DNA of 64,000 bases. Source: Pseudogymnoascus verrucosus (taxonomy: Eukaryota). The translations under genes were made by a program, and so were the position numbers. The stretch lies in NCBI GenBank assembly GCA_001662655.1, contig KV460271.1. The stretch is one strand, 5' to 3'. This document shows positions 29,788 to 50,803 of the stretch, piece after piece. Positions within the stretch are counted from its first letter, which is position 1, and the number at the start of each line of letters is the position of its first letter. The notes beneath the pieces were generated by a model. The model was not told the origin of the DNA. It saw only the letters and a program-made list of their open reading frames with translations, and did not search any database.

Positions 29788-32700
29788 ATGATCAGAGACC
29801 AGATCGCACCGTCTGGCCCTAGACCAGCGGGTCTGCCCTCTCAAAAGTCGTAAGTGGTGCCGCATCCCTTAAACACCCCATCAATTGCTTACAATCTACA
29901 GCTCAAAGGAGAACCACGACCCCGTTGTTTCTGCTCCTCGACCACGCCTACCTATTGGCCGAGAACCACCGCCTGTTTTGAATAAGATACCCTTGCCCTC
30001 AGAACAAGCCTCGGGCGAACCTCTGGACTTTCTGCCCTCCCCAAGTTTCGACGATCTGCACATGAGCATATCATCGGCATCTGACGACCAGAGACTCGAG
30101 CCTTTCCCGGACACAAAAAGAGAACCTAGCCTGTCCAGCAGCATGATGTCCGACAGACCTACCGGTGGTGTAATGACCCGAGAAGCGGTTGAGGCGAAAG
30201 GTTTAGCCGGCCGCGGGGCGCCTATTACAAGGCCAGTTCGGAGTGGCTCTCTTTTAAGGAGGCAGAGTACCTCAAATCGACAGAGCAGTGTTTCCTCTAC
30301 ATCGTCTGCTATACCTGGGAGCATGGACCCGCCCACAGCCCCGCTTGCTATGCGCACACGCAGACAGAACCAGTACCCCCCAATATCAGCAAATAACGGA
30401 GGCAAAGGACAACGTAAATCCATCGGTTTTGGCGGCACTGAATCCGACACGTCTTTCAGAACATCTCACAGACGCAGACCAAGTTTAGCGTCCAGTATTA
30501 CGGCGTCTGCATCAAATCAAAGCTTGTCAGATGCCACAAACGGCAGTCGGATGTCGGATTCGTCTGGAAACTTTCAAGGCGACACTTCACGTCTAACAAC
30601 ACCACGCGCATCGAAAACAAAGTCTCTCCAACCTCCATCTCGTCACAACCAAGAATCATCGTCGACCCCAAGAGGCACCCCTGATCATTCTAGATCATTA
30701 TCATATGCTGGGAAGTCACCCGGCCGACACAACGGGCGCAACACGTCGACTCCATCATCAGCAGCAAGGCGTATGTCGCAAATGCCTTCATCCAATTCAC
30801 ATGCATCTGGATTAGGCGCAAGGACAATCAGTCCTACGGATACGAGACGAATGAAGCGGATGTCTACCATGCATGGTGCTCCACCTTTGCCAAATACTCC
30901 GCCTGTGAACCAGCAGGATCCTTCCCATCTAAGAGGATCGTCACGTTCGCCATCACTTCTTCCACGCATGAGCACTACGCCTTCGTCTTTGCGCAACACC
31001 CCGGACTTTAGCCGCAAAACGTATGGAGTCTCTACTGGATCCAATGGTGGGTTTACGCCGAGATCGTCAACTGGATCGCTCCAGCCCCAGCCTCGCTTGC
31101 TTCCTGTGCCATCGACTTCTAGACTACCTACTCCAAAGTCAAGAAATGTTCATAGCTCTGCCGGGAATGAAGAGGAGGAAGTGCCACCTGTCCCAGCAAT
31201 TCCAAAGGCATATGAATCTCCAAAAGAGTCACCTGCCGAACCCCCACTCTATGCCGCTCGAAAATCAAGCCTCCCATTTGATTCGAGCAGTATAAACAGC
31301 CGGAACAGCAGCTCTACCAATGAGCTATCTGGAACATCATCCGGAAGAGATCCCAGAAATGTGGACTCAAGCTCTCACTCTAGAATACAGCACGGCATGG
31401 GTGCTGGGTCAGATGCTGAACAACATGGAAAGCGTGGGCCCCCTAAGAAAAAACACCTGCAGCCATTGCGACTCCCTCCACTTAACCTACTTCCCCTGAG
31501 CACTCCAACTGCAGCAAAGATTGCTGCTTTCCGCAATGATGCAGCTTCAAATTCCAACGGGACAGTAACGCCACCACCAAAACGAGCGAGTGCGAAGACC
31601 CCTACAACACCTATGACAGCATCGAAATCTACATTCTTTTCACACAATCGTGATGATATGTCGGGCCATATCACCGACCAGTTGCGAAGCAGCACATCGA
31701 TCCAGCATTCAAGGCAAGACAATGGATCTACAAGTCCCACAAAGCCGCTACCCGCGCCACCAAACCCGGCACGACAGAACGCTGTGTCACCATTCATTTC
31801 ATCGTCCTTACCAAAGAACAGTGGAGAGTTCAACTTTTTGCCAAGACCACAAACAAGTGGTGACTTCCCAACCGACTTTTCTGGCGAACAGAGGCTGAGT
31901 AAATTAAATGGCCCTCGGGCTCTGAATACTGCCCTGCCACCCAAGGCTGATGATCCCCCAACTTACGATCAGTCAAGCCAAGACGAGGCCCAGACACCGT
32001 CGTCGGCGTCATCGCTTCGGAGAAAGCTCAGCCTTGGCTGGAGACGTACTGGTTCTAAAAGCAGCATTAGCTTGTCTCATGCAGCGAACGAGAGGGCGGC
32101 TAACGACAAGAGCTCGGAATATGCACCTCAACCTCCAAAGCACGATCCAAAGCATAATGACATGCCACCTCCAAGACTTCCTGCGTCGATGAGTATGCAG
32201 AACGTTAACAGCCAGGCGGCAACGTCAAGCCCAAGCCCGACTGTGAAGCCGATGTATCTGGAATCGAAAAGACGGAAAAGCTCCATTTCGAGTCTCACGC
32301 TACCCGTTGCTCAAGAACGCACACAAGGCAATAACTGGGGTATTACCCCCCGTGGTCCGAAGAAAGAGGATACTACAGATATGAAGCCTCTACAACCCAA
32401 GCTCAACCCGCAGCGATCCTCGGCTTCAATGATTGCCCATGGCCAGAGAATAATCGGACCCAAGGCGTCCTCGAGTGCCTTGAGGCCGGTGAATCCTTAC
32501 GCTTCCAAGCTCGACAAGGATGACTTAGTGGCAGAAGAGGAGATGAGGAAAATGGCGTCAAGGCGGAAAGAGACCGAGCAAGCTGCGAAAGTACTCGATG
32601 CCCTCCGAAAACGTGCCACGCCCAAGGAGAGGGTATCTCCGCAACAAGCAGTGCAAATGGCACATCTGAACATTTATGAGCGCGGTGAGATTGTTGACTT

Positions 32701-34155
32701 CAAGGATGTTTACTTCTGCGGCACGCAAAGCGCAGCCAAACATGTTGGGAAAGTTCAATCTGATAATGCCAACTTTGGCTACGACGATGAACGAGGAGAC
32801 TACAGCATTGTAAAGGGCGACCATCTCGCATTTAGGTACGAGATCATCGACATCCTCGGAAAGGGTAGTTTCGGTCAAGTTGTTCGATGTATCGACCACA
32901 AAACTGGCGGCTTGGTTGCTATCAAGATTATTCGGAATAAGAAGAGGTTTCATCAGCAGGCACTTGTGGAAGTCAACATCTTGCAGAAGCTGCGCGAATG
33001 GGTAAGAATGATTTCACATTTGCCAAATACTGTTACTAACAGCGCCGATAGGATCCAACAAACAAACATAGCATGGTCAACTTCACGCAAAGTTTCTACT
33101 TCCGTGGCCATCTTTGCCTCTCTACTGAACTTCTTGATATGAACCTCTACGAGTTCATTAAGTATAATGGCTTCAAGGGGTTCTCGTTGAAGCTCATTAG
33201 GCGCTTCACCAAACAGCTTCTGGGCAGTCTGCTTCTTCTTAAGGTTCACAAGGTCATCCACTGTGATCTCAAGCCAGAAAATATTCTACTTGCTCACCCA
33301 ATGCACTCGGAGATCAAGGTTATCGATTTCGGTTCCAGTTGCTTTGAAAACGAAAAGGTATATACCTACATTCAATCTCGATTCTACCGATCGCCAGAGG
33401 TTATCCTCGGTATGAGTTACGGAATTGCAATTGACATGTGGAGTGTTGGCTGTATCTTGGCTGAGCTTTATACCGGCTATCCGATTTTCCCTGGCGAGAA
33501 TGAGCAGGAGCAGTTGGCCTGTATCATGGAAGTGTTTGGACCACCAGAGAAGCATCTTATTGAGAAGAGCACAAGAAAGAAGCTCTTCTTCGATTCTATG
33601 GGCAAGCCACGACTCATTGTGTCATCGAAGGGCCGTCGCCGGAAGCCTTCGTCGAAGACCTTGCAACAAGTCCTGAAGTGTGACGACGAGGTGTTCCTGG
33701 ATTTCCTTTCGAAGTGCTTGAGATGGGATCCAGCCAGACGAATGACGCCAGACCAAGCTGTTCAACACGAATATATCTTGGGACCAAAGACATCGCTATC
33801 AGCACCACGACCCCTTGGAGGCACCAGCAGAAATGAATCGCCAGTCAAGCGATATAATACTACGGCTACCTCCCAGAGTAGCCAGCGACCTCTCCCAGAG
33901 CCTCCGGTGACTGCACTTCGCAACGGTGGCACGAGGACTCGTGATCCTAGTCCGAATAAACCTCCGGCCCCAAGGAGATTGTCCAATGTACATAACCTAA
34001 GCAACCCAACAATCTCGACCGCGAGCAAGCGCGCCAGTATTGGCCCTGCAGCCCAGACCACAAGTGGGCTACCGAGAGTCGCAACACGGAGCACGAGCGG
34101 GAGGCAAGACCTGGCCATCTCAGGAGCCGGAGCAGCGATGAACAGGAGAGGATGA
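29788..34155 (+). CDS. POM1: DYRK-family dual-specificity protein kinase (Pom1/Ppk5-like), 3 exons
   Basis: Exons 29788-29849, 29902-33001, 33052-34155 (introns GTAAGT..CAG and GTAAGA..ACTAAC..TAG). DH box YDDERGDY, GKGSFGQV, HCDLKPEN, DFG and YTYIQSRFYRSPE; long Ser/Pro-rich N-terminus. Confidence 0.9.
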
Positions 34156-35277: not shown

Positions 35278-37134
35278 ATGATCTCCTCAAAGCTTCTATA
35301 TAACAGTAGTCTGCGACAGATTGTTCGACAGGCTCCGAGAGCATTTAAAAATCCGATTTTCGCAGTTACAGCGCAGACGAGAGCTATGGCGACGGAATTC
35401 AAGATTAAGAACCTTGCGGCGCTTGATTTGAAGCCGGGGGAGAAGAGGCAGGTTGAGGTGGATGGGGTTGAGGATGGGAAGGTCTTGTTGCTGAATGTTG
35501 GGGGGAAGACTACTGCTGTCGGTGCTAGATGCACTCATTATGGTGAGTTTGGTGCTGTGTTTACGAGTTGCTTCTGTTGCTCACACATGAACCAGGTGCC
35601 CCGCTTGTCAAGGGAGTTTTGACTGGAGATGGCAGAATTACCTGCCCATGGCATGGAGGTGAGTTATACCGACATTTCAATACTGTAACTGCGACGGGGA
35701 CAGCTCACTAATGATATTGTAGCTTGCTTCAACGCAACGACGGGTGATATTGAGAACGCCCCAGCCCTTGATAACCTCCCCGTCTTCGGGCTCGTCGAGA
35801 AGGATGGCGGTGTCTATGTCACAGGTGCGCAGGACAAGATCAAGGGAAGCAGGAGAAAGCCAAATATCAAATGCTCTGCTGTGAAGCCTGAGAACATCGT
35901 TGTTGTGGGAGGCGGGTCGGGGGCCATTGGTACTGTTGAGGCGCTTCGCGAACAGGGTTATAAGGGCTCCATCACTTTGATCAGCAATGAGGGATACCTG
36001 CCAATAGACAGGACGAAGCTGTCTAAGGCTCTGATTGCCGACCCGGTCAAGATTGGACTGAGAGACCAGCCATGGTTTGACGAGGCGGGGATCACCACTG
36101 TCACTGATGAGGTGACCGAGGTTGATTTCCTCACTAAGAAAGTGCACACGAGATCTTCGAGCGTGTATCCCTACACCAAGCTGGTGCTCGCAACTGGTGG
36201 AACCCCTCGCCAGCTCCCACTACCAGGCTTCAAGGAGCTCGGAAACATCTTCGTGCTACGAAACATCCATAATGTCAAAGACATCCTGGCCGCTATTGGC
36301 GAGAAGAACAAGAAGATTGTTGTCATCGGCAGCTCTTTCATCGGCATGGAAGTTGCCAAAGCCACATCTAAGGACAACACCGTCTCGGTGGTGGGTATGG
36401 AGAAGGTTCCCCTCGAGCGCGTCATGGGCGAGCAAGTCGGCTCCTACCTACAGAAACAACTCGAGGCAATCGGCGTTAAGTTCCACATGAACGCCGGCGT
36501 CGACAAAGCCCTGCCCTCCGCCTCTGACCCCTCCAAGGTCGGCGCCATCCAACTCAAAGACGGCACCAAACTCGACGCCGACCTCGTCATCCTCGGCGTC
36601 GGAGTCGCGCCTGCAACCGAATATCTTAGGGGCAACAAGTCCGTGCAACTCGCCAAAGATGGCTCCCTAACTGTCGACGGGGACTTCCTCGTCCAGGGCG
36701 TCGATGGTGTCTACGCCGTCGGCGACATCGCGACGTACCCTTACCACGGCCCCGGCGGCAACGGCGCCCCGGTCCGCATCGAGCACTGGAACGTAGCGCA
36801 GAACTCCGGCCGCGCAGCCGCCGCACACATCGTCTCCCCAACAGTGGCGCGCAAGCCATTCATCCCCATTTTCTGGTCAGCGCTCGGGGCGCAGTTGCGG
36901 TACTGCGGGAACACGGTGACTGGGTATGATGGGAGCGTGGTGCAGGGGTCGCTGGAGGAGTATAAGTTTGCGGTGTTTTATACGAAGGGGGAGGAGGTGG
37001 TGGCGGTGGTTACTATGGGGAAGGATCCGGTGGTGTCGCATGCGAGTGAGTTGATGAGGAGGGGGATGTTGCCGGGGAAGAAGGAGTTGGAGGGGGGGCT
37101 GGATATCTTGACGATTGAGGTTCCTGCTTTGTAA
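35278..37134 (+). CDS. aif1: AIF-like Rieske [2Fe-2S] / FAD-NAD pyridine nucleotide-disulphide oxidoreductase, 3 exons
   Basis: Exons 35278-35542, 35596-35658, 35723-37134. Rieske motifs CTHYG and CPWHG assemble across the introns; GGGSG and GSSFIG dinucleotide motifs, AVGDIA, RIEHWNVA, PIFWS. Confidence 0.9.
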
Positions 37135-38632: not shown

Positions 38633-39591
38633 TAAAATAATACAGAAATCTCCATAATAGTATTATAATTCTTTACCGTGTGCGAGTGCTAATATACTTA
38701 GGGTCTTTTAAAATTGTTCTATATATCAGACTACATGGAAGCTGGCCGTTTGTAGTTATCACCGTGATTTTTTTTTTGTTTACAAATATCGGGATGCATT
38801 GGAGAAATGTATTTGTTGTCTGTGATACTTTCGACCCTTAATATTCATGGTGACAACGTGGTTTCTTCCTGGCAACGGGGTCTTCGACGGGAACGGTGGT
38901 GGTTCATACAGTATGTTTCACAGCAACTTCCACAAGATAATCCAGTAGTTTGCTTCTCAGACATGGGTTTCCGCAGAGTCATGCAGCAGCAACGTGGGTT
39001 GCTAGACAAACAATTCATTGTTTTGGCAGGTACATAATTTCATAGACAGGGCCCATTAATTTTGGCCTTAACTGCGAGTTTCAACTGAAATAAATGTGGC
39101 CAGAGCTTCTGCACGGATATGAGGCCGTTCATGGCTTCAAAGCACTGCATTATGATAAGTTATACTGGACGATGAGCTTGTCTTGAATCCTCCAATGTCA
39201 AAGTCATTACAGGTCTATTTTATGTTCAGCTGGAGTAGTAAAATATTTAAATTACAACAACATCATATACCTCGCCTCACGACTATCTTCCGGCTTGTTT
39301 ACTGTATCTTCTATCGTTTCGCAGTTTCAATAATCACTTAGTCGAGCGCAAATGATTGGGTGTGGCTTCCCGACGGAGTACATGCGTCATTGTTTGTCCG
39401 AGGTGGCTGGTAACTAAGATCTGCGGGACCGCGTTAATGACAAACAGCCCACTTTCAACCTTAACCATCGCGTGGGGCTGCCTTCAGGAGAGCGAGCTCC
39501 ATCGTCTCCCCATCAACACCAACCTTCCTTCATGACTATCGCGAGAATGAGGATTCCGACCGTCCATCCACCACCTTGAGCCCTCGAAATC

Positions 39592-42015
39592 ATGTCCGTT
39601 GCCGCGGATCCACAGCTTGGTGACCCGCCGGATGCGGATGGCCAGTTTTGCGACCTCCCGTTGAGCATTCCAGTCACACCAACGACGCCTGTGGAGCGCG
39701 AAACAGAGTGCTGTTGTGGAAGAGACAGCTGCGCATACCTGAGACATAACAACGAGGCTTTGGACGGACTGGAGAAGGATGTGAGGACAGCAGCACAGCT
39801 GGGTCAGGTATGTAGAGTCCTTTATTCTGTCGGGTCCCCTGTGTTCGAGTCTATAAAGCGAGTCCTAAACCCACTAGTCGAGCTTCTATGCAGACGACGG
39901 GTAACCTGCATACCAGCCTGCATACTAGATATCATGATGGGAGACATCAGTTTTCGGAAAGGAGAAATAACTAACTCGCTTCTTTTCTCTCTACAGGCCC
40001 TTCTCGTGCGCCATGAAGCCTATATCGTCGAGGCGGAAGAGTCGCGTCGCCAGATGAGCTTGCGCATCGAATCCCTCGAAACCGATAAGCGAAACCTCGA
40101 AGCTGAGAATGCGCGAACGGTGCAGGAGAATCGCGATTTACTGAACCACTTGGAGCAATTGAACGGTGCGATCGCCGAATCGGAAAGTCGTGCTGGGAAC
40201 CTCGAGGCGACGCTACAAGGGACACTCCTGGAGATGAAGAGGTTAGATTCTTTGGCAAGTAGAACCCATGATCTTGAAGCACAGCTTGCGGAGTTAGAGA
40301 AGGAGCAGGATGATTTGAGAGGGACAGTTGTGCTGACGGAGGCGGAATCGAGGACTGCGGTAAGGAGGTGGAGAGAGGCAGAAAGGAGATTGGGAGAAGT
40401 GCAGGATCAGTTGGAGAGGATCGAGAGGGAGTCAACTGAGGAGAAAGCGCGCCATGAGGAAGTATTCCGTCGGATGGAGAGGCAGAAGCTGGTCGACAAA
40501 GCAATCCAAGATGCGAGCAACGGAAAAGTGGCGGTGTCAAACGCTGGGCAGGGAAAAGAGGGTACTAATGTAGTATCGCATTTCGTAAAGGACATCTTGC
40601 AAGACAATGTCAACTTGCAAATGGGCATTGTAGAGCTGCGCGACATGTTGACGAGCTCTAATGACGAAGTCCAGAAGCTGCGAGATCAGCTCATGGCTCA
40701 CCAACCTGTTCGAGATGGCGCTACTGGTGAAAACACTGTCCCAGTGACACTGGCTTCAGAACTCTCCGTCAGAGAACCGCTATCACTCTCGCAAGAACTC
40801 CACGTCCATCATCACTATCACGCTCCGGCAAAGAAGGAAGATAGTCGGCGTGCCGTTCCGAAAAGGAAACGTAATGTCTCCATCACCACGCCTACAAGAC
40901 TCAACTCAAGGGGCCATAACACACGTCAGAGCCAGTCGTCAATCGCCGCAACGATCTTGTCTCAAACCTCAAGCACAGTTCCCAGTCCGAGGACTGCTAA
41001 TCGATGGTCCACCCAATCTGAATTCGCATCTACGGAACCCAGCTCTCCAACGTCGAATTACCGGAACTCGTTTCTTTTCGATCGAATGTCTGTCGACCAG
41101 AATACGGATTACTCACGGCCTACATCTCCGGGGTCAAGTAATGATCCGCTCTCGCCTTGCATTAAGCCAATGCACCGAAGACGTCCCTCGGATTTCTCCA
41201 TGCATAGCTTTAAAGCACAAATGTTTGAGACAGGTACTATTCACGAGGAAGAAGATAATGATATCTCGCATATCTCTGGACTAGTGGAACGGCCAAAGAC
41301 CCGTCGCATCTCACAGGATGACTCCAACTTTGATCTAAACTCTGGACAAGCCTCCAACGGGTTTGACCCCTATGCCTCCCACCACTCAACACATAAACTC
41401 CGTCGGTCTACGTCCCATGAATCGATAATTTCTGTTTCTGGGATCGACATACACACTCTCAAGTCCCGTCCTTCACAGTTAACAATCAGCAACTCACGCG
41501 CCTTACTCCGGACACCCTCGCGGCAGGATACTAGCAGCGTGAGCACTTCGTTTGTCTCCACGGAACCCATCTTTACTCCTGCCGATACACCTAGGCCGAC
41601 GATATCGAAGCAGAATTACAGCAGCAGTTCTCTTCTACGATCTTCAATCGGCATTGCTGAGCGTCCATTGTCTATTAAATCTACAGTTTCTGCAGACGAG
41701 GCCGTCACAAGCGTTCAGAAACTCGGAGGCTGGATATTCGGCCGTTGGGGTATGTCGCCTTCATCCAATGCATCCAGCCCTGCCGCATCCGTAGTCGATG
41801 TCCCGCCGCCCTCTTTGAGGATAGGAACAGACCGGACGCCGAGCACACCAGCTGCTGACCCAAACAGAGACCCGCTACGAATATTTATGGGGAGGTCACC
41901 GGGGATCAACCAGGTTGGTCCTATTCCGGGATTTCGGAAGACTGAGAAGGCGCCTAGTAGAGTTATTCCAGACCGCGTGGATTGGGAATCGCTTCTAGAG
42001 GTACTTGGAGAGTAA
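39592..42015 (+). CDS. Long coiled-coil protein with N-terminal CCCG-x3-C motif and disordered Ser/Pro-rich C-terminus, 2 exons (about 744 aa spliced)
   Basis: 807-codon ORF containing a 189-nt intron 39808-39996 (GTATGT..ACTAAC..CTACAG); Glu/Arg/Leu heptad-like region follows; HVHHHYH and GGWIFGRWG motifs. Confidence 0.85.
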   Translation: MSVAADPQLGDPPDADGQFCDLPLSIPVTPTTPVERETECCCGRDSCAYLRHNNEALDGLEKDVRTAAQLGQVCRVLYSVGSPVFESIKRVLNPLVELLCRRRVTCIPACILDIMMGDISFRKGEITNSLLFSLQALLVRHEAYIVEAEESRRQMSLRIESLETDKRNLEAENARTVQENRDLLNHLEQLNGAIAESESRAGNLEATLQGTLLEMKRLDSLASRTHDLEAQLAELEKEQDDLRGTVVLTEAESRTAVRRWREAERRLGEVQDQLERIERESTEEKARHEEVFRRMERQKLVDKAIQDASNGKVAVSNAGQGKEGTNVVSHFVKDILQDNVNLQMGIVELRDMLTSSNDEVQKLRDQLMAHQPVRDGATGENTVPVTLASELSVREPLSLSQELHVHHHYHAPAKKEDSRRAVPKRKRNVSITTPTRLNSRGHNTRQSQSSIAATILSQTSSTVPSPRTANRWSTQSEFASTEPSSPTSNYRNSFLFDRMSVDQNTDYSRPTSPGSSNDPLSPCIKPMHRRRPSDFSMHSFKAQMFETGTIHEEEDNDISHISGLVERPKTRRISQDDSNFDLNSGQASNGFDPYASHHSTHKLRRSTSHESIISVSGIDIHTLKSRPSQLTISNSRALLRTPSRQDTSSVSTSFVSTEPIFTPADTPRPTISKQNYSSSSLLRSSIGIAERPLSIKSTVSADEAVTSVQKLGGWIFGRWGMSPSSNASSPAASVVDVPPPSLRIGTDRTPSTPAADPNRDPLRIFMGRSPGINQVGPIPGFRKTEKAPSRVIPDRVDWESLLEVLGE

Positions 42016-42838
42016 TGGACGGGGGAACGAAGATGGTGGTACAGGGCCAGGGGGGTGCCACGGCATTATTACATACTATTATTCTCCTATACAGTTAGGC
42101 ACATTTCGTTTGGGGGCGGCGTACAGGTGGTTGGGATACCCAGCACGCATTGGCTTATGGGCTTATAAGCAAGGGCGGAAGGATGCCCGAAGGAACACTA
42201 TATACAGCAGATAACACTTTTCTATCAATAGTCAGACGATTTTTTAATCGGCGTCGCCGTTGTCAGCATGCTCGCGAACTTCTAGCCGTGGCTGACTTGC
42301 CGATGGATTGTGGCTGCAACGCGTTTTATTCCAAGAGGAAGTTCGGCCGACATGGCGCAGTTTATGTTGTCTGTTATTGGTGGTTTTGTGGTTATCCTTG
42401 TATTATGCGCACCAACCTGCATATCAATCTGTACTTGTACGGATACGTATACGTGGAGTGTTGTATGTGTATCTCCCCCACCATGTTCATTTTATTCTAC
42501 TTTACACCGCATACACAGAAATCGTAGCTGACAGCCGCATCGCCCAGCTATGTATCTAGTAAGTCGCCGGCTAAGTGTTTCTCTTTCCTTTGTGGGCATT
42601 TCTTCATCCTCATTTCCAACCATCGTACATGTATGTGGTTGGAATGCATACAAGTTTATGACGCATTGAGCGCGCATCCTCCTTGCATCAAAGAAACGAC
42701 AAAGACATCTGTCGAGCCAGTCGCTTTCGCTGTCCTTTGAATTTATCCACCGCGACAAGGCTGAGGCTGCTCGTCCCTGGATATCTAAAATCTGCTACCT
42801 ATACATACTCTGTTGGCGTGTCTCTAAGATTATACACA

Positions 42839-44102
42839 ATGCCGGAAGCTGCCGCCATGGGGCGACGTTTTGTCGCAATCCCCAACATCGACATTGGCCT
42901 CAGTCCGCGACATTTCCTTGGCTCCCCGCCACAGCAGCTCAGAGAGCGGCAGGACATCGTCGTATGCCCGAAGCCAAATTCCCACCGATGTGAGCCGAGT
43001 CGCCGAGTCCTCTAGCTACATAGGGCGAGAACTGACGATCACAGGCGATGATACGGGCTTCCCAAATGACTGCTGCCTCGACACCGAGTTCTGCTTCGTC
43101 GATAACAACTTCAATTCTAGTTGCTGCGCTATCGGGAATAACTGCGCGTCGGTGAATATATGCACAGATACCGCATTTTTCTACTGCCACACCACCTCCA
43201 CCATCACCGCTGCCACCACCTCTCCCACTCGCAGCGTCTCATCTGGCTCCTCCATAACCTCCCCCCCGAACCCCAACATTACTGTCTTCCCAGCCTGCTG
43301 TCCGCGCCCTTGCTCCGCCGCTTCCGCATACCAATGTCCCGAGTCCCTCGGCGGCGGATGCTGCTCCCTAGGCTATAGCTGCCTCTCCAACGCCTGCTAT
43401 AAAAGCATTCCCACCACCTCTAGCACAACCAGCAGCTCCGTCCCCTCCTGCCCCACCTCCGATATCCCCTGCACCGACGACGTCGGCGGCTGCTGCAACT
43501 CCGCAGCCCACTGCACCATGCTGGAGTCCACAGGCTACTGCGCCACCGGCTCCGCGGCCCCTACCGAGCGGCGCATAGGAGGTACTTCAGGGAACAACGT
43601 AATCGAGAAACCTCGCGGCGGGGGCGGCCTGAGTAGCGGCGCGAAAGCGGGAATAGGCGCGGGTGTAGCGATTGGGGCGTTACTGGTGATCGGGGCGGCG
43701 GTGTGGTGGTGGATCTCAAGGCGCCGACAGGCAGGTGGGAGTGCACCGCGGGGAAGTGGGCGCGGGAGCGGGCCATGGGGGAGTGCGCATGGAGGGACGG
43801 AAACGGTGGTCTCGATGCAGCAAGGGAGTACGCCTGGGGCGCCGGACATGGCGGGGAGAGGGACGGAGGATTACTTTGGGCCAACGGCGGGGATTGGGCC
43901 GTTTACGGGAGCGGAGGGGGCAGGGGCGGCGAGAAGTGGTGCGGTGCCGGTGAGTCCGAATCAGCCGGGGGATATCCAGCCTGCGGTTGAGATTGGAGAG
44001 GCGTTGGGACGACGGACGCCTGTGAGCCCGGGACCTAGTACGCAGCACGAGTACTGGAAGCATGGGGCGAAGACGGTAAATGAGCATGTTGAGTTGGAGT
44101 GA
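42839..44102 (+). CDS. Cys-rich, Ser/Thr-rich single-pass membrane protein (Mid2/Skg6-like architecture), at least 2 exons
   Basis: Intron 42990-43044 (GTGAGC..CTGAC..CAG) joins 'LRERQDIVVCPKPNSHRC' to 'DDTGFPNDCC'. Repeated GGCC/CC motifs, S/T stretches, TM segment AGIGAGVAIGALLVIGAAVWWWI followed by SRRR. 5' end uncertain. Confidence 0.75.
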
Positions 44103-44424
44103 GGGTGGGTGATATTAAAGTGCATATTTTGGAGTTTTGGTATAAGATATCACGGAATCGGTATTTTGCTACGGATGAGATAATATATTACAACGAGTCC
44201 CTGACTCTGACCATGGGGTATGCGCGCTTTCCCCTCGAAACGAAAGCGAGCACAAAAAACCTAATGCGCACCTGTGCCCAACCCGCTATGCAACGCCGTG
44301 CCTCTACTAAAACTCCGAAGATCCGCAACCAGATTAAAAACAAGACAAAGACAAAACGCCAGCACCAACGAAGCCCAGCTATCGCTTACAAAGTATCCAA
44401 AACACAAAAGGTGGAGCATGGAGC

Positions 44425-45349
44425 TCAAGAAAAGATCCCCCCAAATGGCGCGCTATCACGCAGATCCTCGACCAGATCCTCCACACTGCTTAGGTGCCGG
44501 CTCACAAGTGCCTGCTTCTCAATCGGACTCCTTGTAACTTCTGCCGCTGGCTCGCCCCTTCCTTTCATCTCGCGCCCGAAAGCGCCGGCGAGTTTACTCG
44601 GGCTGCGCTGGAGCATGGCTGGTACGGAGTCGCGGGCACCGGCGGAGGGAATGCTGGGTGACTCGGGGAGGAGGTAGAAGTATAGGAACTCGACGAGCTT
44701 GGCCTTGACGTCGCGCGGGGTGGAGCGGGACTTGAAGAGCGAAGTGACAGTGAGGAGGCCGTCGAGCGCTTCGAAGGTGCGTGTGTTGGCTGGGGTATCG
44801 AGGAGGACCACGACGAGGGTGAGGAGTGTTGCGGATTGGATAGCCGGGCAGTTTATGGGTTCGAGGAGGTCGAGAAGGTGCTGTAAGAGGACTGTTAGTA
44901 AGGCCCGTAAATAAGAGTGGTTGGTTAGAGAGACGAACGTTCATATATAGCTCTCTTGAGAACAGCGACCTCGACGAAGGATGAAGTAATAATATCCCTT
45001 GTATCAAGTCGAGACAGGCGAGAATAAGCAGATCGTTCTGGCCATCGTTGCTCTTCCCTAGCAGGCGATCGAGGCAGTTAACAAGGCGCAGAGCGACGTT
45101 CCATTCGAAGCCATCTTGCAGCTTGAAGAATTCGCGGAAAGCAGGATCATCAGGCAGATCGGCGAGTTCTTTACGCGGTGATGGAGGAGGGTTGTCGGCT
45201 GGTACGAGGAGTGAGTGCCGTTTGTTCGGCTTGTGTTTTGAGAGGCAGATCTGGGCGAGTAGACCTTCGACTTGGCGCATGCCTTTGCGGATCTTGGAGG
45301 CGTCGTAGGAGGAGAGGTTGTCGAAGGAGAGGGAGAGTAGGGCTTCCAT
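44425..45349 (-). CDS. cdc14: Septation initiation network protein Cdc14 (S. pombe-type SIN component, not the phosphatase), 2 exons
   Basis: Exons 45349-44939 and 44880-44425; intron 44938-44881. MEALLSLSFDNLSS..IRKGMRQVEGLLAQIC, FFKLQDGFEWNV, LLLHPSSR, NTRTFE, KLVEFLYFYLLPE. Confidence 0.88.
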
Positions 45350-46153
45350 TTTGAGGAAGGGGAGGGTGGATTTCCCGTCCTGGGTGGGAGGTGTTGCAAA
45401 GTTGTGTTGTGCTACTGAGGGTGTGATGGGTGGTTCTGAGAGTCCTGTGTGTTTGGTTGATAACGGCTACGCAGTGGTCTCCCCAGTGATCCAATCAGAA
45501 TAATAAGGGCATCCGCAAATGATAATACAGAATAATGAATTGAAGAGAGTAAAAACTCTGAGTTGTGTGATGGAGATAGATTGGGTTGATGAGAATGAGT
45601 GAGAATCTGTATCTGAAGCTGCCTTGTCGCATGAGCGAGACATCTCGGAGACAATTTCGGCGGTTGGCAGGGCAGCAGGGCGGAGTGAATTGGCAGAATT
45701 ATTGCGGAGGGCTTAGCGTCGGTGTGTTGCAGCTGGTAGCTTCAGCCTGGTGCCTCGCTGAGATGCCACATACGAAGCTATCACAGCTAAACACGGCTCC
45801 AGAACATTCCCCGCTATAGGATTTCTTCGACATTTACGAACATTTACGCAGACCAGCGCATATACGGTACGTAATTCTGACACGACAGTTGGCGCATTTT
45901 TCTGGAGATGAAGCTTATAATATTCATGACGCAGGATTCACGACTCTGTGCGCGGGCTCAAACGCATGTGCGACTGAGGCCGACAGCCTCATCCAGGCAA
46001 CCTCTTTAATATACCCCGACGCATGACATCTTCGTCAACCAACATCTACTTTCAAATATACACATCGACAATAATATGTACTGTTCCATTTTTTAATCCT
46101 ATTAACTTACTACTCCTCAACTCGCGCATCTGCCTCAGCAGGACTGACAACGA

Positions 46154-47546
46154 ATGCCCAGCTCACCAACATCCCCCGCCTTCCTCTCCTCCCCTATACG
46201 CCGACCAAACCGCCGCACCTTCGGCCTCTTCTCACCCATAACCTCTCCAATAACCTCTCCACGAACTCCATACCCGCCAAAGATGGCGCACAAGACCCCA
46301 TCCCCTCCGACGCGCCCCGCGCACCTCGCCTCTCCAGGCGCCATACCACCCCGCACCTCCTCAACAAACGGGCCTTCCCAGACACAAAAGCCCGTCGTCC
46401 CACCGCTCCCCGAATCATCATGGCTCTCTTCTCGACACTCTAGCCTCGCTGCCTCCGTATCTCCCGCCGTCATCGACCAGGTGGCGTCGAACTCACCCCC
46501 CACAACCACAACAACCCACCCCTCCACTGGGCCGACGCCGTGGTCTGAGGCGAAAGAAACAATCCTCACAGGCCCATACGACTACCTCGACTCCCACCCC
46601 GGGAAAGATATCCGCTCGCGCCTGATCGGTGCTTTTGACGCATGGCTTCACGTCCCCGCACCCGCCCTCGCAATCATTACAAAAGTAGTCGGCATGCTCC
46701 ACACAGCCTCCCTCCTCGTCGACGACGTCGAAGACAGCTCGCTCCTACGCCGCGGCCTACCAGTCGCACACTCCATCTTCGGCACAGCGCAGACGATCAA
46801 CTCAGCGAACTACGTATACTTCCTCGCACTACAGGAGCTGTTCAAACTGGACGAGCTGAGGGATAAAGAGGGGGGAAATACCAAGCCCAGGGGCGAGGCG
46901 GTGCGCATATATAGCGAGGAGTTGATTAATCTGCACCGTGGGCAGGGCATGGATCTATACTGGCGTGACACCCTCACCGTGCCTACTGAGGCTGATTACC
47001 TTGAGATGGTGCGCAACAAGACAGGCGGGCTATTCCGGCTCGCCGTGCGCTTGATGCAAGCCGAGAGCGCATCAACTACGTGAGTCCTCCCATCAACCCA
47101 TCTCCCCCCCTCCTTCTTACCGTCAAGACACCCCCCCACTAACACCACACCGCAGCGACTTTGCCCCCCTAGCCTCCCTAATAGGCACCCTCTACCAAAT
47201 CCGCGACGACTACGCCAACCTCCTCTCCCCCACCTACTCCACCAACAAAGGCATGTGCGAAGACCTCACCGAAGGCAAATTCTCCTTCCCCATCATCCAC
47301 GCCATCCGCGCGGACCCCTCGCTCGTGCTCCTCAACATCCTGAGGCAGAAGAGCACGGATGAGGAGGTCAAGAGGTATGCGGTCGCGTATATGGAGGGGA
47401 AAGGGAGCTTTGCGTATTGTCGCGAGGTGCTGAAGGAGTTGGGGAAGGAGGCGGTGGCGGAGGTGGAGAGGGTTAGTGAAGGGAAGGGACGGTGGAGGGA
47501 GGAGGTGTTGGGGATTTTGGGGGGGCTGGCGGTGGAGAGTGTGTAA
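46154..47546 (+). CDS. BTS1: Geranylgeranyl pyrophosphate synthase (type III, al-3/BTS1-like), 2 exons
   Basis: Exons 46154-47079 and 47156-47546. [54 protein letters not shown]. Alternative in-frame ATG at 46283. Confidence 0.92.
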
Positions 47547-48680
47547 TGGGGAGGGGAGGGGGTTGATGTGGGATTTATGATTTGTGATTTTATTTTTTTG
47601 GAGATGGGAGGTGTGGAAAGGGTAGGATGGGATTTCGGCGTTGAAGGTGGAAAGGGGGGAGGGGAATGACAAGCGCGTCTGGTGGGGTTTTGTACGTTGT
47701 GGGTGGACGTGATGGGAAGGTGAAGTTAGGTGAGATCAGTTCGCTGGAGACGAGGGGGGCTTTGTAAGGGAAGTGGAGTGCGATACGAGGATGATGATGA
47801 CGAGTGCGGAGGCAACAAGGGAATCTGACACACTCTCACTCACTTACTGAGGCAGGAATCACGACGGATATGATGAAGATGCGATATGCCATACTTACAT
47901 ACCTACAAACCTACAAACACACATCTATACCCACTCCCATCTCCCAAGGCAGGAATATAAATCCAACACACACACCCACCCACCTCTTATAAAATCCCCA
48001 TAACTCCCCACCGCCGTTAGAATAGTAATCACATCACCACAAAGCACAAAGTATTTATACCGTAATCAACCCAACCCAACCCACCCACCACCACCACCAT
48101 GACATAAAAAATATCCACCTCCACTCCACACCTCTCCATCCCTCTTACACCCACAGTTCACGATTTTTCACCACGTTGTGGTGGCTGCGGGCTCCACACC
48201 GTGCCGGCACCCGCTGTCGCGCCTGGGCAGCAGCGGCTGGTAGCGGTGCGTGTGGGGGGTGGGTGTCGGTTGTAGTGCTAAGGGCGCGCGCGGAACGCCG
48301 AAATCTGGTGGGTGGTGGGGGGTGGAGGTAAGGTAAGGTAAGGTATAAGGGAGTTCGGCTGCCCACAATTAAGAGAAAGTTTATTTTGACGCTGTGTGTT
48401 ACGCGCAAGTTTCTGGAATGTTACGGTCTTCACTTTTTGTTACGATCGATGTGAGAATGGGGGGTGGGGGTTGAGTTGATTGATTGGTATATATATCCGC
48501 TTTCTATCATTCCAACGCTCCTCGACGACAACTACGAAACGCACAGGGGCGCCCGTGAGTGTGCATGCACAATTATACAACAACCGCCTCCTTACATCAA
48601 ACAAACGAAAAATCCAGAATGTGTTCGAAAAACTAAACAACACACCGCGCGGGCGAAAGACAGCACAGCAGCGGCGCCAT

Positions 48681-50803
48681 CTAGAACCAGAAGTTCCAGA
48701 CCTTCTTCCAGAAGGGCATCGCCTTGTACGCAGCGCGCTCGGCCTCCATCTCCTCGCCGAGGTTGAGCTCGCGGCGGCCGTGGTCGACGTCGACGGTGGA
48801 GAGGTTGACGCCGAACTTGAAGGTGCGGGTGTAGATCTTGTGGCCGACGAAGAAGAGGATGACGATGGGGCCGGCGAGGTAGCTCTTGAAGAAGCCCTCG
48901 GCGTCGAGGTTGGGTCCTCCGACGGGCTAGGGGGGTTTGTTAGTTTGAAGTCCTGACGCGGGGGAGTTGGGGCAGGAGAAGGGGAACTTACGTAGAGGGC
49001 AACGTAGAAGGAAGCGATGAGGCAGAGGACGTTGAGGAGGAATCCGATCCAGGATCCAGTAACACCGAACATGGCAGCGAAAGGCAGCTCGTCGAGCCCG
49101 CGACCCGCCAGCTTCCACGCGCGACGGTAGCAGATGTGAGCGAGGCAGATGGAGCCCCAGGTGAAGAAGGACGAGAGACCCGAAAGCGCGAGGAGCCAGT
49201 CGAAGACCTCACCGCCCTTGGGGGAGAGGCGGATGAAGGCGATGAAGCCGAAGGCGAGCGCGAAGATCATGGCGACCCACGGGCGGCCGTGCTTGTCGAC
49301 CTTGCTGAACCACTTGGGGGCCATGCCGTGCATGGCTAGGGCCTGGAGCGTGCGGGTGGAGCCGAAGGTACACGAGTTGGCGACGGAGATGACGGAGAGG
49401 GTGATGACGGCGTTCATGATGGAGGGGAGGACCTTGATATTGGCCTCCTGGAAGGCGCGGACGAAGGGGGAGTACTTGGAGTTAGCTCCGGATGCCTTGG
49501 ACAAAAGTGGGTCGTCAGACTTGATGATCAGGCCCAGGATGAAGAGCGAGACGACGTAGAAGAGGGAGACACGCCAGAAGACCTGCTTGGTGGCCTTGGG
49601 GAGGGTCTTGCGAGGGTTGTCGGCCTCGGCGGCAGCAAGACCGACAAGCTCAGTTCCAGCGAAAGCGAAGGCGGCGGTGACGAAGACGGAGCAGAAGCCC
49701 TTGAAGCCGTTCTTGAAGGCTTGCTGGGGTGCATGCCAGTATGCCGCGCCAATGTATCCTCTGTTTTATATATGTCAGTTCTGGGCTCTGGGAACCGAGC
49801 TGGGTGGGCGGATTTTTGGGAGACGTACCTGGTGTCAGTGGGAACACCACCGCAGTTGATGATGATACCTGCGAGGATGAAGCCGATGACAGCAATGACC
49901 TTGATCGTGCCGAGGACGAACTCGACTTCACCGTAGCCACGGATACCAAAGACGTTGACGAAGATGATGATGACGAGGAAGACAGCGATCCACACGCCGT
50001 CGCTGACAGTCGCGCTGTCGTCGTTATCGTTTCCGGTCCAGAAGCGGATGGTGATACTGGCGGCGATCAATTCGAAGGGGAAGACGACAAGCCACGACAT
50101 GGCGTAGTTCCAGCCCATGGCGAAACCCCAAGACGGGTCGATGAAGCGAGCAGAGTACGTGAAGAAAGCACCGTTGACGGGGTACCTATTAGAAGGAGTC
50201 AGCTCTGGTTTCATTTTCGGGCTAGGTTACGCTGCTAGAGCTATCGCCAGGTCGCGCTCATTGTGCAACGAGACCAAGCAGCCAGAGGATTGGCGGCTGA
50301 TCCCATTGACAAATCGAGTCGCCGAGGACGCAAGCTGGGAAGGGAAGGGAAGGAATGGGAGAGTACTCACATGACAGCAAGCTCACCCAGAGCATTGACG
50401 GTCATCAACATCATAACACCGACGATGATGAAATCGATAGTCTAGACACAGCGCACGTCAGCCTCGCCCCCAAACTCGCCGCGGTTCCCCCCCATCTGAG
50501 CTCCCACTGGGTGCGCAGAAGCTCAAATCGGGGCAGTCAGCCATCTATCTCACTTACCAGCGAACCGGGACCACCATTATACAGCGCACCACCAGATCCA
50601 ATAAACAGACCAGCACCAATGGAGCCACCAATAGCAATCATCTGCATATGCCTATTCTTCAGCTTCCTCAGCAACGGGTTCTGCCCCGGCTGAGCCTCGA
50701 CATCGTGCTCATTGGTCTCATAGCGACTGGGCGAGACATCGTCGGAGGAGCCGACTTTGTCCTTCTCGTAGACGGCGGCGCCGTCTTTGTCGTAGGCGGA
50801 CAT
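48681..50803 (-). CDS. Amino-acid permease (APC superfamily, yeast amino acid transporter family, Gap1-like), 5 exons
   Basis: Exons 50803-50558, 50441-50371, 50185-49829, 49760-48992, 48926-48681, all GT..AG and in frame. LKNRHMQMIAIGGSIGAGLFIGSG, ALGELAVMYP, GYGEVEF, AFAFAGTELVG, ends WNFWF. Confidence 0.93.

Follow-up and report, generated by a model that had tools for sequence, protein, structure and literature searches.

The question raised by a gene at positions 39592 to 42015 of a 64,000-nucleotide (nt) stretch of Pseudogymnoascus verrucosus DNA (contig KV460271.1, assembly GCA_001662655.1; the whole stretch is hereafter called the window) is whether filamentous fungi possess a cargo adaptor for cytoplasmic dynein and dynactin of the kind that carries a CC1 box. 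In these fungi many organelles are moved over long distances by a single dynein, and the dynein adaptor and anchor literature that we found for them concerns Hook and its partners. The CC1-box class is a functional one, comprising BICD/BICDR, Spindly, HAP1/TRAK and CDR2. A prediction made from the letters of the window (the original prediction) had proposed that the gene product may be an adaptor of this class, with an AAxxG box, a long coiled coil, a Spindly-type motif and a disordered tail. Our analysis places the gene in a so far unnamed family of Pezizomycotina and makes this family a plausible new CC1-box-type cargo adaptor for cytoplasmic dynein–dynactin, a reading to which we assign a probability of roughly 0.45. 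From conserved sequence and predicted structure we infer that family members may bind the dynein light intermediate chain (LIC), the dynactin pointed end and cargo.

Gene structure and splicing of the CC1-box-like motif

The start codon, the single intron and the stop codon of the original prediction were all borne out (Table 1). Four public runs were compared over positions 39400–40400, with X1 and X2 belonging to one study and X3 to another. Contigs from three of the four runs join position 39804 directly to 39994, skipping 189 nt that have GT..AG ends when the cut is moved by +3; the label ‘RNA?’ attached to runs X1 to X3 is a guess, and no listed run is on record as RNA. The junction of the spliced product, ...LEKDVRTAAQLGQ/ALLVRHE..., is shared exactly by P0004, a 744-aa ‘hypothetical protein’ of Pseudogymnoascus sp. 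in the database that is 99% identical. As the intron (39808–39996) is in frame and stop-free, the reading frame alone cannot decide its removal; the contig joins and the junction of P0004 support it. We conclude that the gene is real and spliced as proposed.

In the spliced protein the AAxxG motif reads AAQLG and occupies residues 67–71, the CCCG-x3-C cluster lies at residues 40–47, and L324 of the TLASEL sequence (residues 323–328) is encoded at nt 40750, each where it had been placed. Were the intron retained, 63 additional residues would interrupt the box between Q72 and A73. A low-depth X3 contig (39866–40023) covers part of the intron and occurs beside the spliced contig of that run; it could represent pre-mRNA, DNA or an alternative form.

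A conserved AAxxG box at the start of a predicted dimeric coiled coil

Conservation was assessed with an alignment of 41 diverse family members from at least five fungal classes (alignment A2). The box, with the family consensus AAxxGQALLxRHE, is the most conserved N-terminal feature. Within it A67, G71, L74, L75 and R77 are invariant (41/41), and A68, H78 and E79 are each kept in at least 90% of members. The four Cys residues of the CCCG-x3-C cluster that precedes the box (C40, C41, C42 and C47) are also invariant, as are N117, L120, N128, F268, N276, E285, H343, H347 and several core leucines. In a larger set of 374 members the box is present in 173 (AAxxG in 168, AGxxG in five) and the Cys cluster in 178, most of the others being without the first exon in their gene models. 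That exon is missing from 201 of the 374 deposited models, which consequently contain neither the Cys cluster nor the AAxxG half of the box.

AlphaFold2 was run with alignment A2, yielding a mean predicted local distance difference test (pLDDT) value of 58 and a predicted template modelling score of 0.29. Two helices separated by a short break were predicted in the N-terminal half (Table 1), the second of which, residues 265–307, is conserved more strongly than any other block of the family. Together the helices (48–243 and 265–307) amount to a coiled coil of about 240 residues; a length of about 200 residues or more is expected of an adaptor that spans the dynactin filament. The heptad-rich region of about 250 residues described in the original prediction is thus helical and of adaptor scale, but it is not one stretch, being broken at residues 244–264 of the model. 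A four-residue helix is predicted on the LxxEL motif, and disorder beyond it extends to a C-terminal helix at residues 735–743, in agreement with the disordered tail that had been proposed to follow the coiled coil.

For two copies of residues 36–345 a parallel, in-register pair was predicted, with a score of 0.48 compared to 0.00 for the best control. For eukaryotes the score mark is reached by 17 of 29 proteins solved as one-chain pairs and by none of the 30 solved as single chains. At least 49% of contacts were common to the dimer runs, and the pLDDT of the partner was at least 67. Predicted contacts are in register (99:99, 96:96 and 92:92), spanning residues 37 to 218 and then 276–301. Core positions taken from the contact list (...53, 57, 60, 64, 67, 71, 74, 78...) assign A67 to heptad position d and G71 to position a, close to the N-terminal end of the predicted parallel dimer. 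The model supports a parallel in-register homodimer of the N-terminal half, although it does not show one. On BICD2 the CC1 box is 39-EKIQAAEYGLAVLEE-53, with A43 and G47 at positions d and a, and the small size of these two residues is described as creating a cavity for the LIC1 helix (Lee et al., PMC7655957). In the predicted dimer the fungal box reproduces this BICD2 geometry.

A conserved LxxEL island and flanking residues

The second motif of an adaptor of this class would be a Spindly-type motif some distance downstream of the box. The LASEL sequence of the window protein fits the pattern L-hydrophobic-x-E-hydrophobic, and it stands in an otherwise variable linker: in alignment A2, L324 is kept in 38/41 members, E327 in 35/41 and L328 in 36/41, compared to at most 12/41 for the flanking columns. 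Of 376 members, 362 have an L-x-x-[ED]-hydrophobic sequence no more than 45 aa ahead of the His cluster, compared to 28 of 376 that have one in a control window placed in the tail. Box and LxxEL are separated by a median of 257 residues (range 235–275). Conservation of both motifs across ascomycete relatives had been put forward as a check on the original prediction, and it holds for AAxxG as well as for LxxEL. The prediction had also cautioned that the two motifs could arise by chance. Each is short enough for this to be so in one sequence, but the conservation of the box and of LxxEL across the family is not a product of chance.

Most residues of the HVHHHYH cluster that follows the island are kept in at least 90% of members, and downstream of it lies a conserved basic patch (Table 1) that could be a nuclear localization signal (NLS) or a polybasic membrane- or microtubule-binding patch. 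To our knowledge, neither the Cys cluster before the box nor the His cluster after LxxEL has a counterpart in known adaptors. Their strict spacing, which is the sole basis for this interpretation, suggests that they are metal-binding clamps or switches rather than lipid anchors.

Comparison with known adaptors

The original prediction had further proposed that the protein is TRAK/HAP1/BICD-like by descent. Profile searches did not sustain this part of it. The best match of family profile A1 among 177,635 PDB sequences was BICDR1, which aligned on the CC1 box with E=0.08. In the HMMER alignment the family consensus ...LEKEVRTAAQLGQALLVRHE... is in register with ...KEKDLVLAARLGKALLERNQ... of BICDR1. 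With the broader profile A2 a myosin chimera ranked above three BICDR1 sequences (E=0.27 to 1.2), and a PDB search with P0004 alone gave nothing relevant. Weak matches to the Pfam family HAP1_N (PF04849) were obtained for 11 of the 41 members, the best with E=0.0046. In P0216 the match falls on the box (residues 81–127 against profile positions 76–118, E=0.011). The Pfam BicD family appeared neither in the per-protein tables nor among the 25 families matched most often by the 41 members.

Several observations weigh against a dynein adaptor. Similarity to known adaptors does not reach statistical significance in any case, the E-values for BICDR1 being those given above, and no BICD2, Spindly, TRAK or HAP1 chain was returned by PDB searches at E up to 10. 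The HAP1_N scores that we saw, 6.9 to 15.4 bits, are all below the gathering cut-off of 33.9 bits, and in four of the five members with coordinates (P0084, P0314, P0283 and P0365) the match lies on the second helix (approximately residues 263–305) instead of the box. The canonical QxxH/Y heavy-chain site, HBS1, is absent. This site is expected about 30 residues after the box, with an acidic patch 15–20 residues further on, and the QEKH of BICDR1 aligns with T/A-D-K-R/K in the family (TDKR or ADKK). At position 2 of the Spindly-like motif Arg predominates, a hydrophobic residue or Ala being present there in only 24 of 362 members. The Cys cluster, the His cluster and the NLS-like patch lack an equivalent in known adaptors and may indicate some other function. 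Finally, the dimer model may favour any long heptad sequence, and it is silent on dynein. As an observation on the HAP1_N matches themselves, those on the second helix cover profile positions of approximately 88–126.

The departures at HBS1 and at the Spindly-like motif carry less weight than they would for an animal protein. Acidic residues after the HBS1 position are conserved, with E116 and E125 kept in at least 90% of members. According to a recent preprint, BICD2 and NIN do not use QxxH, and the dynein sites that recognize HBS1–3 are conserved in metazoa and not in Aspergillus nidulans (10.64898/2026.04.25.720804); a canonical HBS1 is therefore not decisive for a fungal adaptor. The Spindly motif of NIN is given in the same preprint as IETEL, so that position 2 of this motif can be polar.

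Likeness and difference can be set out for each known system in turn. The family resembles BICDR1 (BICDL1) and BICD in having an N-terminal EKD(L/V)xxAAxLG(K/Q)ALLxR box at the start of what is here predicted to be a parallel dimeric coiled coil. It resembles BICD2 in the predicted placing of Ala at d and Gly at a (A43 and G47 in BICD2; PMC7655957), and in following a coiled coil of adaptor length with an LxxEL-type motif, that of BICD2 being LLSEL at residues 336–340 (10.64898/2026.04.25.720804). Set against these proteins, the fungal family shows no significant overall similarity, no Pfam BicD match and no conserved QEKH. The Cys cluster ahead of the box is an addition of its own, as are the His cluster and basic patch downstream of LxxEL, and its long disordered tail stands where these proteins have further cargo-binding coiled coils. 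The likeness to HAP1/TRAK consists of the HAP1_N matches, which coincide with the box in P0216, whereas their sub-threshold scores and their usual position on the second helix set the family apart. With HookA/Hok1, an activating adaptor of dynein already described from filamentous fungi, it shares the proposed role and an order of parts that follows the logic described for HOOK3, namely an N-terminal LIC-binding module, a coiled coil, a Spindly-type motif and a cargo-binding part (10.64898/2026.04.25.720804). It differs in that it has no Hook domain, so the LIC-binding module would be the coiled-coil box. In sum, of the adaptor architecture that had been proposed, the box, the predicted dimer, the coiled coil, the LxxEL island and the disordered tail are present and conserved, whereas the QxxH/Y site is absent and position 2 of the Spindly-like motif is usually polar.

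Alternative explanations

The alternative that survives best, an unlikely one in our estimate, is a coiled-coil scaffold or tether unrelated to dynein, acting for example at a membrane, the septum or the spindle pole body, with motifs that are adaptor-like by convergence or chance. The box would then bind some other helix or merely tune the stability of the coiled coil, and LxxEL would be a different short linear motif. Such a protein would fit the sub-threshold level of every adaptor similarity, the absence of a canonical HBS1, the polar residue at position 2 of LxxEL in most members and the Cys and His clusters; generic coiled-coil families, moreover, score level with HAP1_N. On the other side, invariant Ala and Gly residues in successive core positions come at a cost to a purely structural coiled coil and are hard to explain by its stability alone. 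Together with a conserved LxxEL placed at a constant distance of about 257 residues, this Ala/Gly core reproduces a specific known architecture, and the top PDB match is in register on the CC1 box itself.

The second alternative concerns the tail. This segment (approximately residues 350–744) is Ser/Pro-rich and contains short conserved islands, for example SHESI.S.SGIDIHTLK.RPSQ, GGW.FGRWG and GINQ.GPIPGF. Vac17 (PF17321), the yeast vacuole receptor for myosin V, was the only Pfam family matched in the tail of the window protein (E=0.0026, 17.4 bits) and the top match in P0283 (E=0.0011, 18.7 bits, residues 550–713 against profile positions 251–394). On this alternative the family would consist of Vac17-like receptors that connect organelles with a different motor, either myosin V or kinesin-1. 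The tail would bind a Vac8-type armadillo protein, and the N-terminal half would attract a non-dynein motor, or motors of both kinds as TRAK does. We consider this improbable. Neither score reaches the Vac17 gathering threshold of 25.8 bits, the tails of P0053 and P0084 gave no match (0/2), and Vac17 is not among the 25 most-matched Pfam families of the 41 members. PDB searches with family profile A2 and with the window tail found no Vac17 chain, the tail search giving one noise match. Among shorter proteins the P0283 tail had 14 matches at E up to 10 (12 family fragments and two noise matches) and no yeast Vac17, although this search needs shared five-residue words and is weak evidence of absence. 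When the tail was compared with the named clusters of the ESM Atlas, there was no usable match.

The N-terminal half argues in the same direction, as the Vac17 N-terminus is described as a three-helix bundle with a Myo2-binding segment and not as a long dimeric coiled coil (10.1101/2025.03.24.645041). The fungal architecture is entirely different there, and what the two proteins have in common is a disordered Ser/Thr/Pro-rich adaptor tail and the two sub-threshold matches. In Saccharomyces cerevisiae Vac17 the Vac8-binding region is given as residues 290–344 (PMC10161063). With support that is sub-threshold and irregular, a Vac17 link is possible but weak.

Least probable of the three, and hardly to be expected, is a nuclear or spindle zinc-binding coiled-coil protein with a role in chromatin, the nuclear envelope or mitosis, in which the clusters bind metal and RRPKKKR is an NLS: four Cys residues, an HxHHHYH cluster and a basic patch conserved with strict spacing do suggest metal binding and perhaps nuclear targeting, but Pfam scans matched neither a DNA-binding family nor a known zinc finger, model confidence is low in the regions that hold these short clusters, and the pairing and spacing of the box and LxxEL are left unexplained. 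A nuclear metal-binding function is not exclusive of a role with dynein.

A possible mechanism and its significance

If the family is a CC1-box-type adaptor, the small residues of the AAxxG box at consecutive core positions d and a would open a cavity for the C-terminal amphipathic helix of the LIC. The coiled coil would then lie along the dynactin filament, and the (T/S)LxxEL island, about 257 residues downstream of the box, would contact the pointed end through p25. Cargo binding would fall to the disordered tail, a long segment that carries short conserved islands and a C-terminal helix; one weakly supported candidate for the cargo is a vacuolar Vac8-type receptor. Another candidate comes from A. 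nidulans, where dynein engagement of RAB11 exocytic (post-Golgi) carriers needs p25 and not the Hook complex, the abstract of that study naming no adaptor (PMC5385943). A dynein cargo that is p25-dependent and Hook-independent leads one to expect a non-Hook adaptor.

A fuller proposal, which we regard as doubtful, would make the family a non-animal CC1-box activating adaptor that works independently of Hook and owes its likeness to BICDR/HAP1/TRAK either to ancient kinship or to convergence. Its box and its pointed-end motif would each be gated or clamped by an invariant Cys or His cluster, and the cargo selected by its tail would be either the vacuole, by way of a Vac8-type receptor, or the post-Golgi carriers of Aspergillus that depend on p25 and not on Hook.

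Whatever its cargo, a family with the full CC1-box layout is a concrete candidate gene for the question of Hook-independent dynein cargo. Should the adaptor reading be correct, the CC1-box mode of LIC binding is not confined to animals, and the Cys and His clusters are two unexplained additions to what is known of adaptor regulation. The proteins would then form a new family inside a known functional class, with features unseen in that class.

Range and annotation of the family

With exon 2 alone as the query, 1364 database clusters were found at E up to 0.001. A profile search returned 867 representatives at 50% identity, 280 of them with E below 1e-30; the best 150 of the 867, which are those listed, are all strong family members. 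Named members among the matches listed all belong to Pezizomycotina (Leotiomycetes, Sordariomycetes, Eurotiomycetes, Dothideomycetes and lichen-forming lineages), and the database names that we saw are ‘hypothetical’ or automatic throughout. We did not find a description of the family in the literature searched. Several deposited gene models are fused to neighbouring genes, giving products of, for example, 1127, 1255 and 1402 aa.

No Pfam domain was found above threshold in the window protein, unspliced or spliced, and Pfam scans of this protein and 50-odd relatives gave generic coiled-coil families only, all below cut-off (for HAP1_N and Vac17 see above). Some members carry the automatic names ‘myosin-11’ or ‘NUDE domain-containing’, neither of which has Pfam support here. 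Identity with NudE was rejected, as NUDE_C (PF04880) was not matched at E up to 10 in the members tabulated, including P0330 and P0283, which bear NudE-type names. An ESM Atlas search with the front half of the protein found only the family's own clusters, one of them automatically named ‘NUDE domain-containing’, a name without Pfam support. The precomputed labels PF23649, PF24161 and PF28219 were not reproduced by our Pfam scan. HMSV and UDS1 of A. nidulans were considered as relatives and rejected because of their different layout; HMSV is described as having a disordered N-terminal segment of 350 residues with the coiled coils after it, which is the opposite arrangement (PMC9213775).

Features of the locus and neighbouring genes

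Coordinates of the gene, of its conserved features and of neighbouring open frames are collected in Table 1.

Table 1. Positions in the window of the candidate adaptor gene, its features and neighbouring open frames
Feature	Position	Strand	Remarks
Gene	ATG 39592 to TAA 42013-42015	+	Two exons; 744 aa product
Exon 1	39592..39807	+	Residues 1-72 (72 aa); variable N-terminus, Cys cluster, start of coiled coil, first half of box; ends ...LEKDVRTAAQLGQ
Intron	39808..39996	+	189 nt; GTATGT donor, ACTAAC branch site, CAG acceptor; splits box between Q72 and A73
Exon 2	39997..42015	+	Residues 73-744 and TAA stop
CCCG-x3-C cluster (C40, C41, C42, G43, C47)	39709..39732	+	Directly before helix; contacts across predicted dimer
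CC1-box-like motif, first half, E61-Q72 (EKDVRTAAQLGQ)	39772..39807	+	A67 at heptad d, G71 at heptad a (predicted); box as defined in PMC7655957
CC1-box-like motif, second half, A73-E79 (ALLVRHE)	39997..40017	+	Includes invariant L74, L75 and R77
Long helix, residues 48-243	39733..40509 (span including intron)	+	pLDDT above 90; predicted parallel in-register homodimeric coiled coil
Gly/Ala-rich coiled-coil break, residues 244-264	40510..40572	+	pLDDT below 50
Second helix, residues 265-307 (VVSHFVKDILQDN.NLQ.GIVELR.ML...)	40573..40701	+	Predicted dimer contacts at 276, 279-280, 290 and 300-301
Spindly-motif-like island, L324-L328 (LASEL; family consensus (T/S)LxxEL)	40750..40764	+	In otherwise variable linker
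His cluster, H341-H347 (HVHHHYH)	40801..40821	+	Includes invariant H343 and H347
Conserved basic patch (KKEDSRRAVPKRKR; family consensus RRPKKKR)	40831..40872	+	
Tail island around LRRSTSHESI.S.SGIDIHTLKSRPSQ, residues 540-621	41398..41643	+	Sub-threshold Pfam Vac17 match, profile positions 267-333 of 441
C-terminal helix, residues 735-743 (VDxxxLxEVL)	41983..42009	+	Preceded by conserved GGW.FGRWG and GINQ.GPIPGF islands
AIF-like pyridine nucleotide-disulphide oxidoreductase	35689-37134		Open frame
Cdc14 SIN-component domain	44594-45466	-	Open frame
Polyprenyl synthetase	46148-47083		Open frame
Amino acid permease	48440-49765	-	Open frame

Two adjacent plus-strand open frames (424 and 194 aa) at 42828–44677, directly downstream of the gene, had no Pfam match. 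The neighbours are housekeeping genes with no evident link to the adaptor candidate. Upstream, a protein kinase domain at 29873–34155 is split over two frames, so that this gene probably contains an intron.

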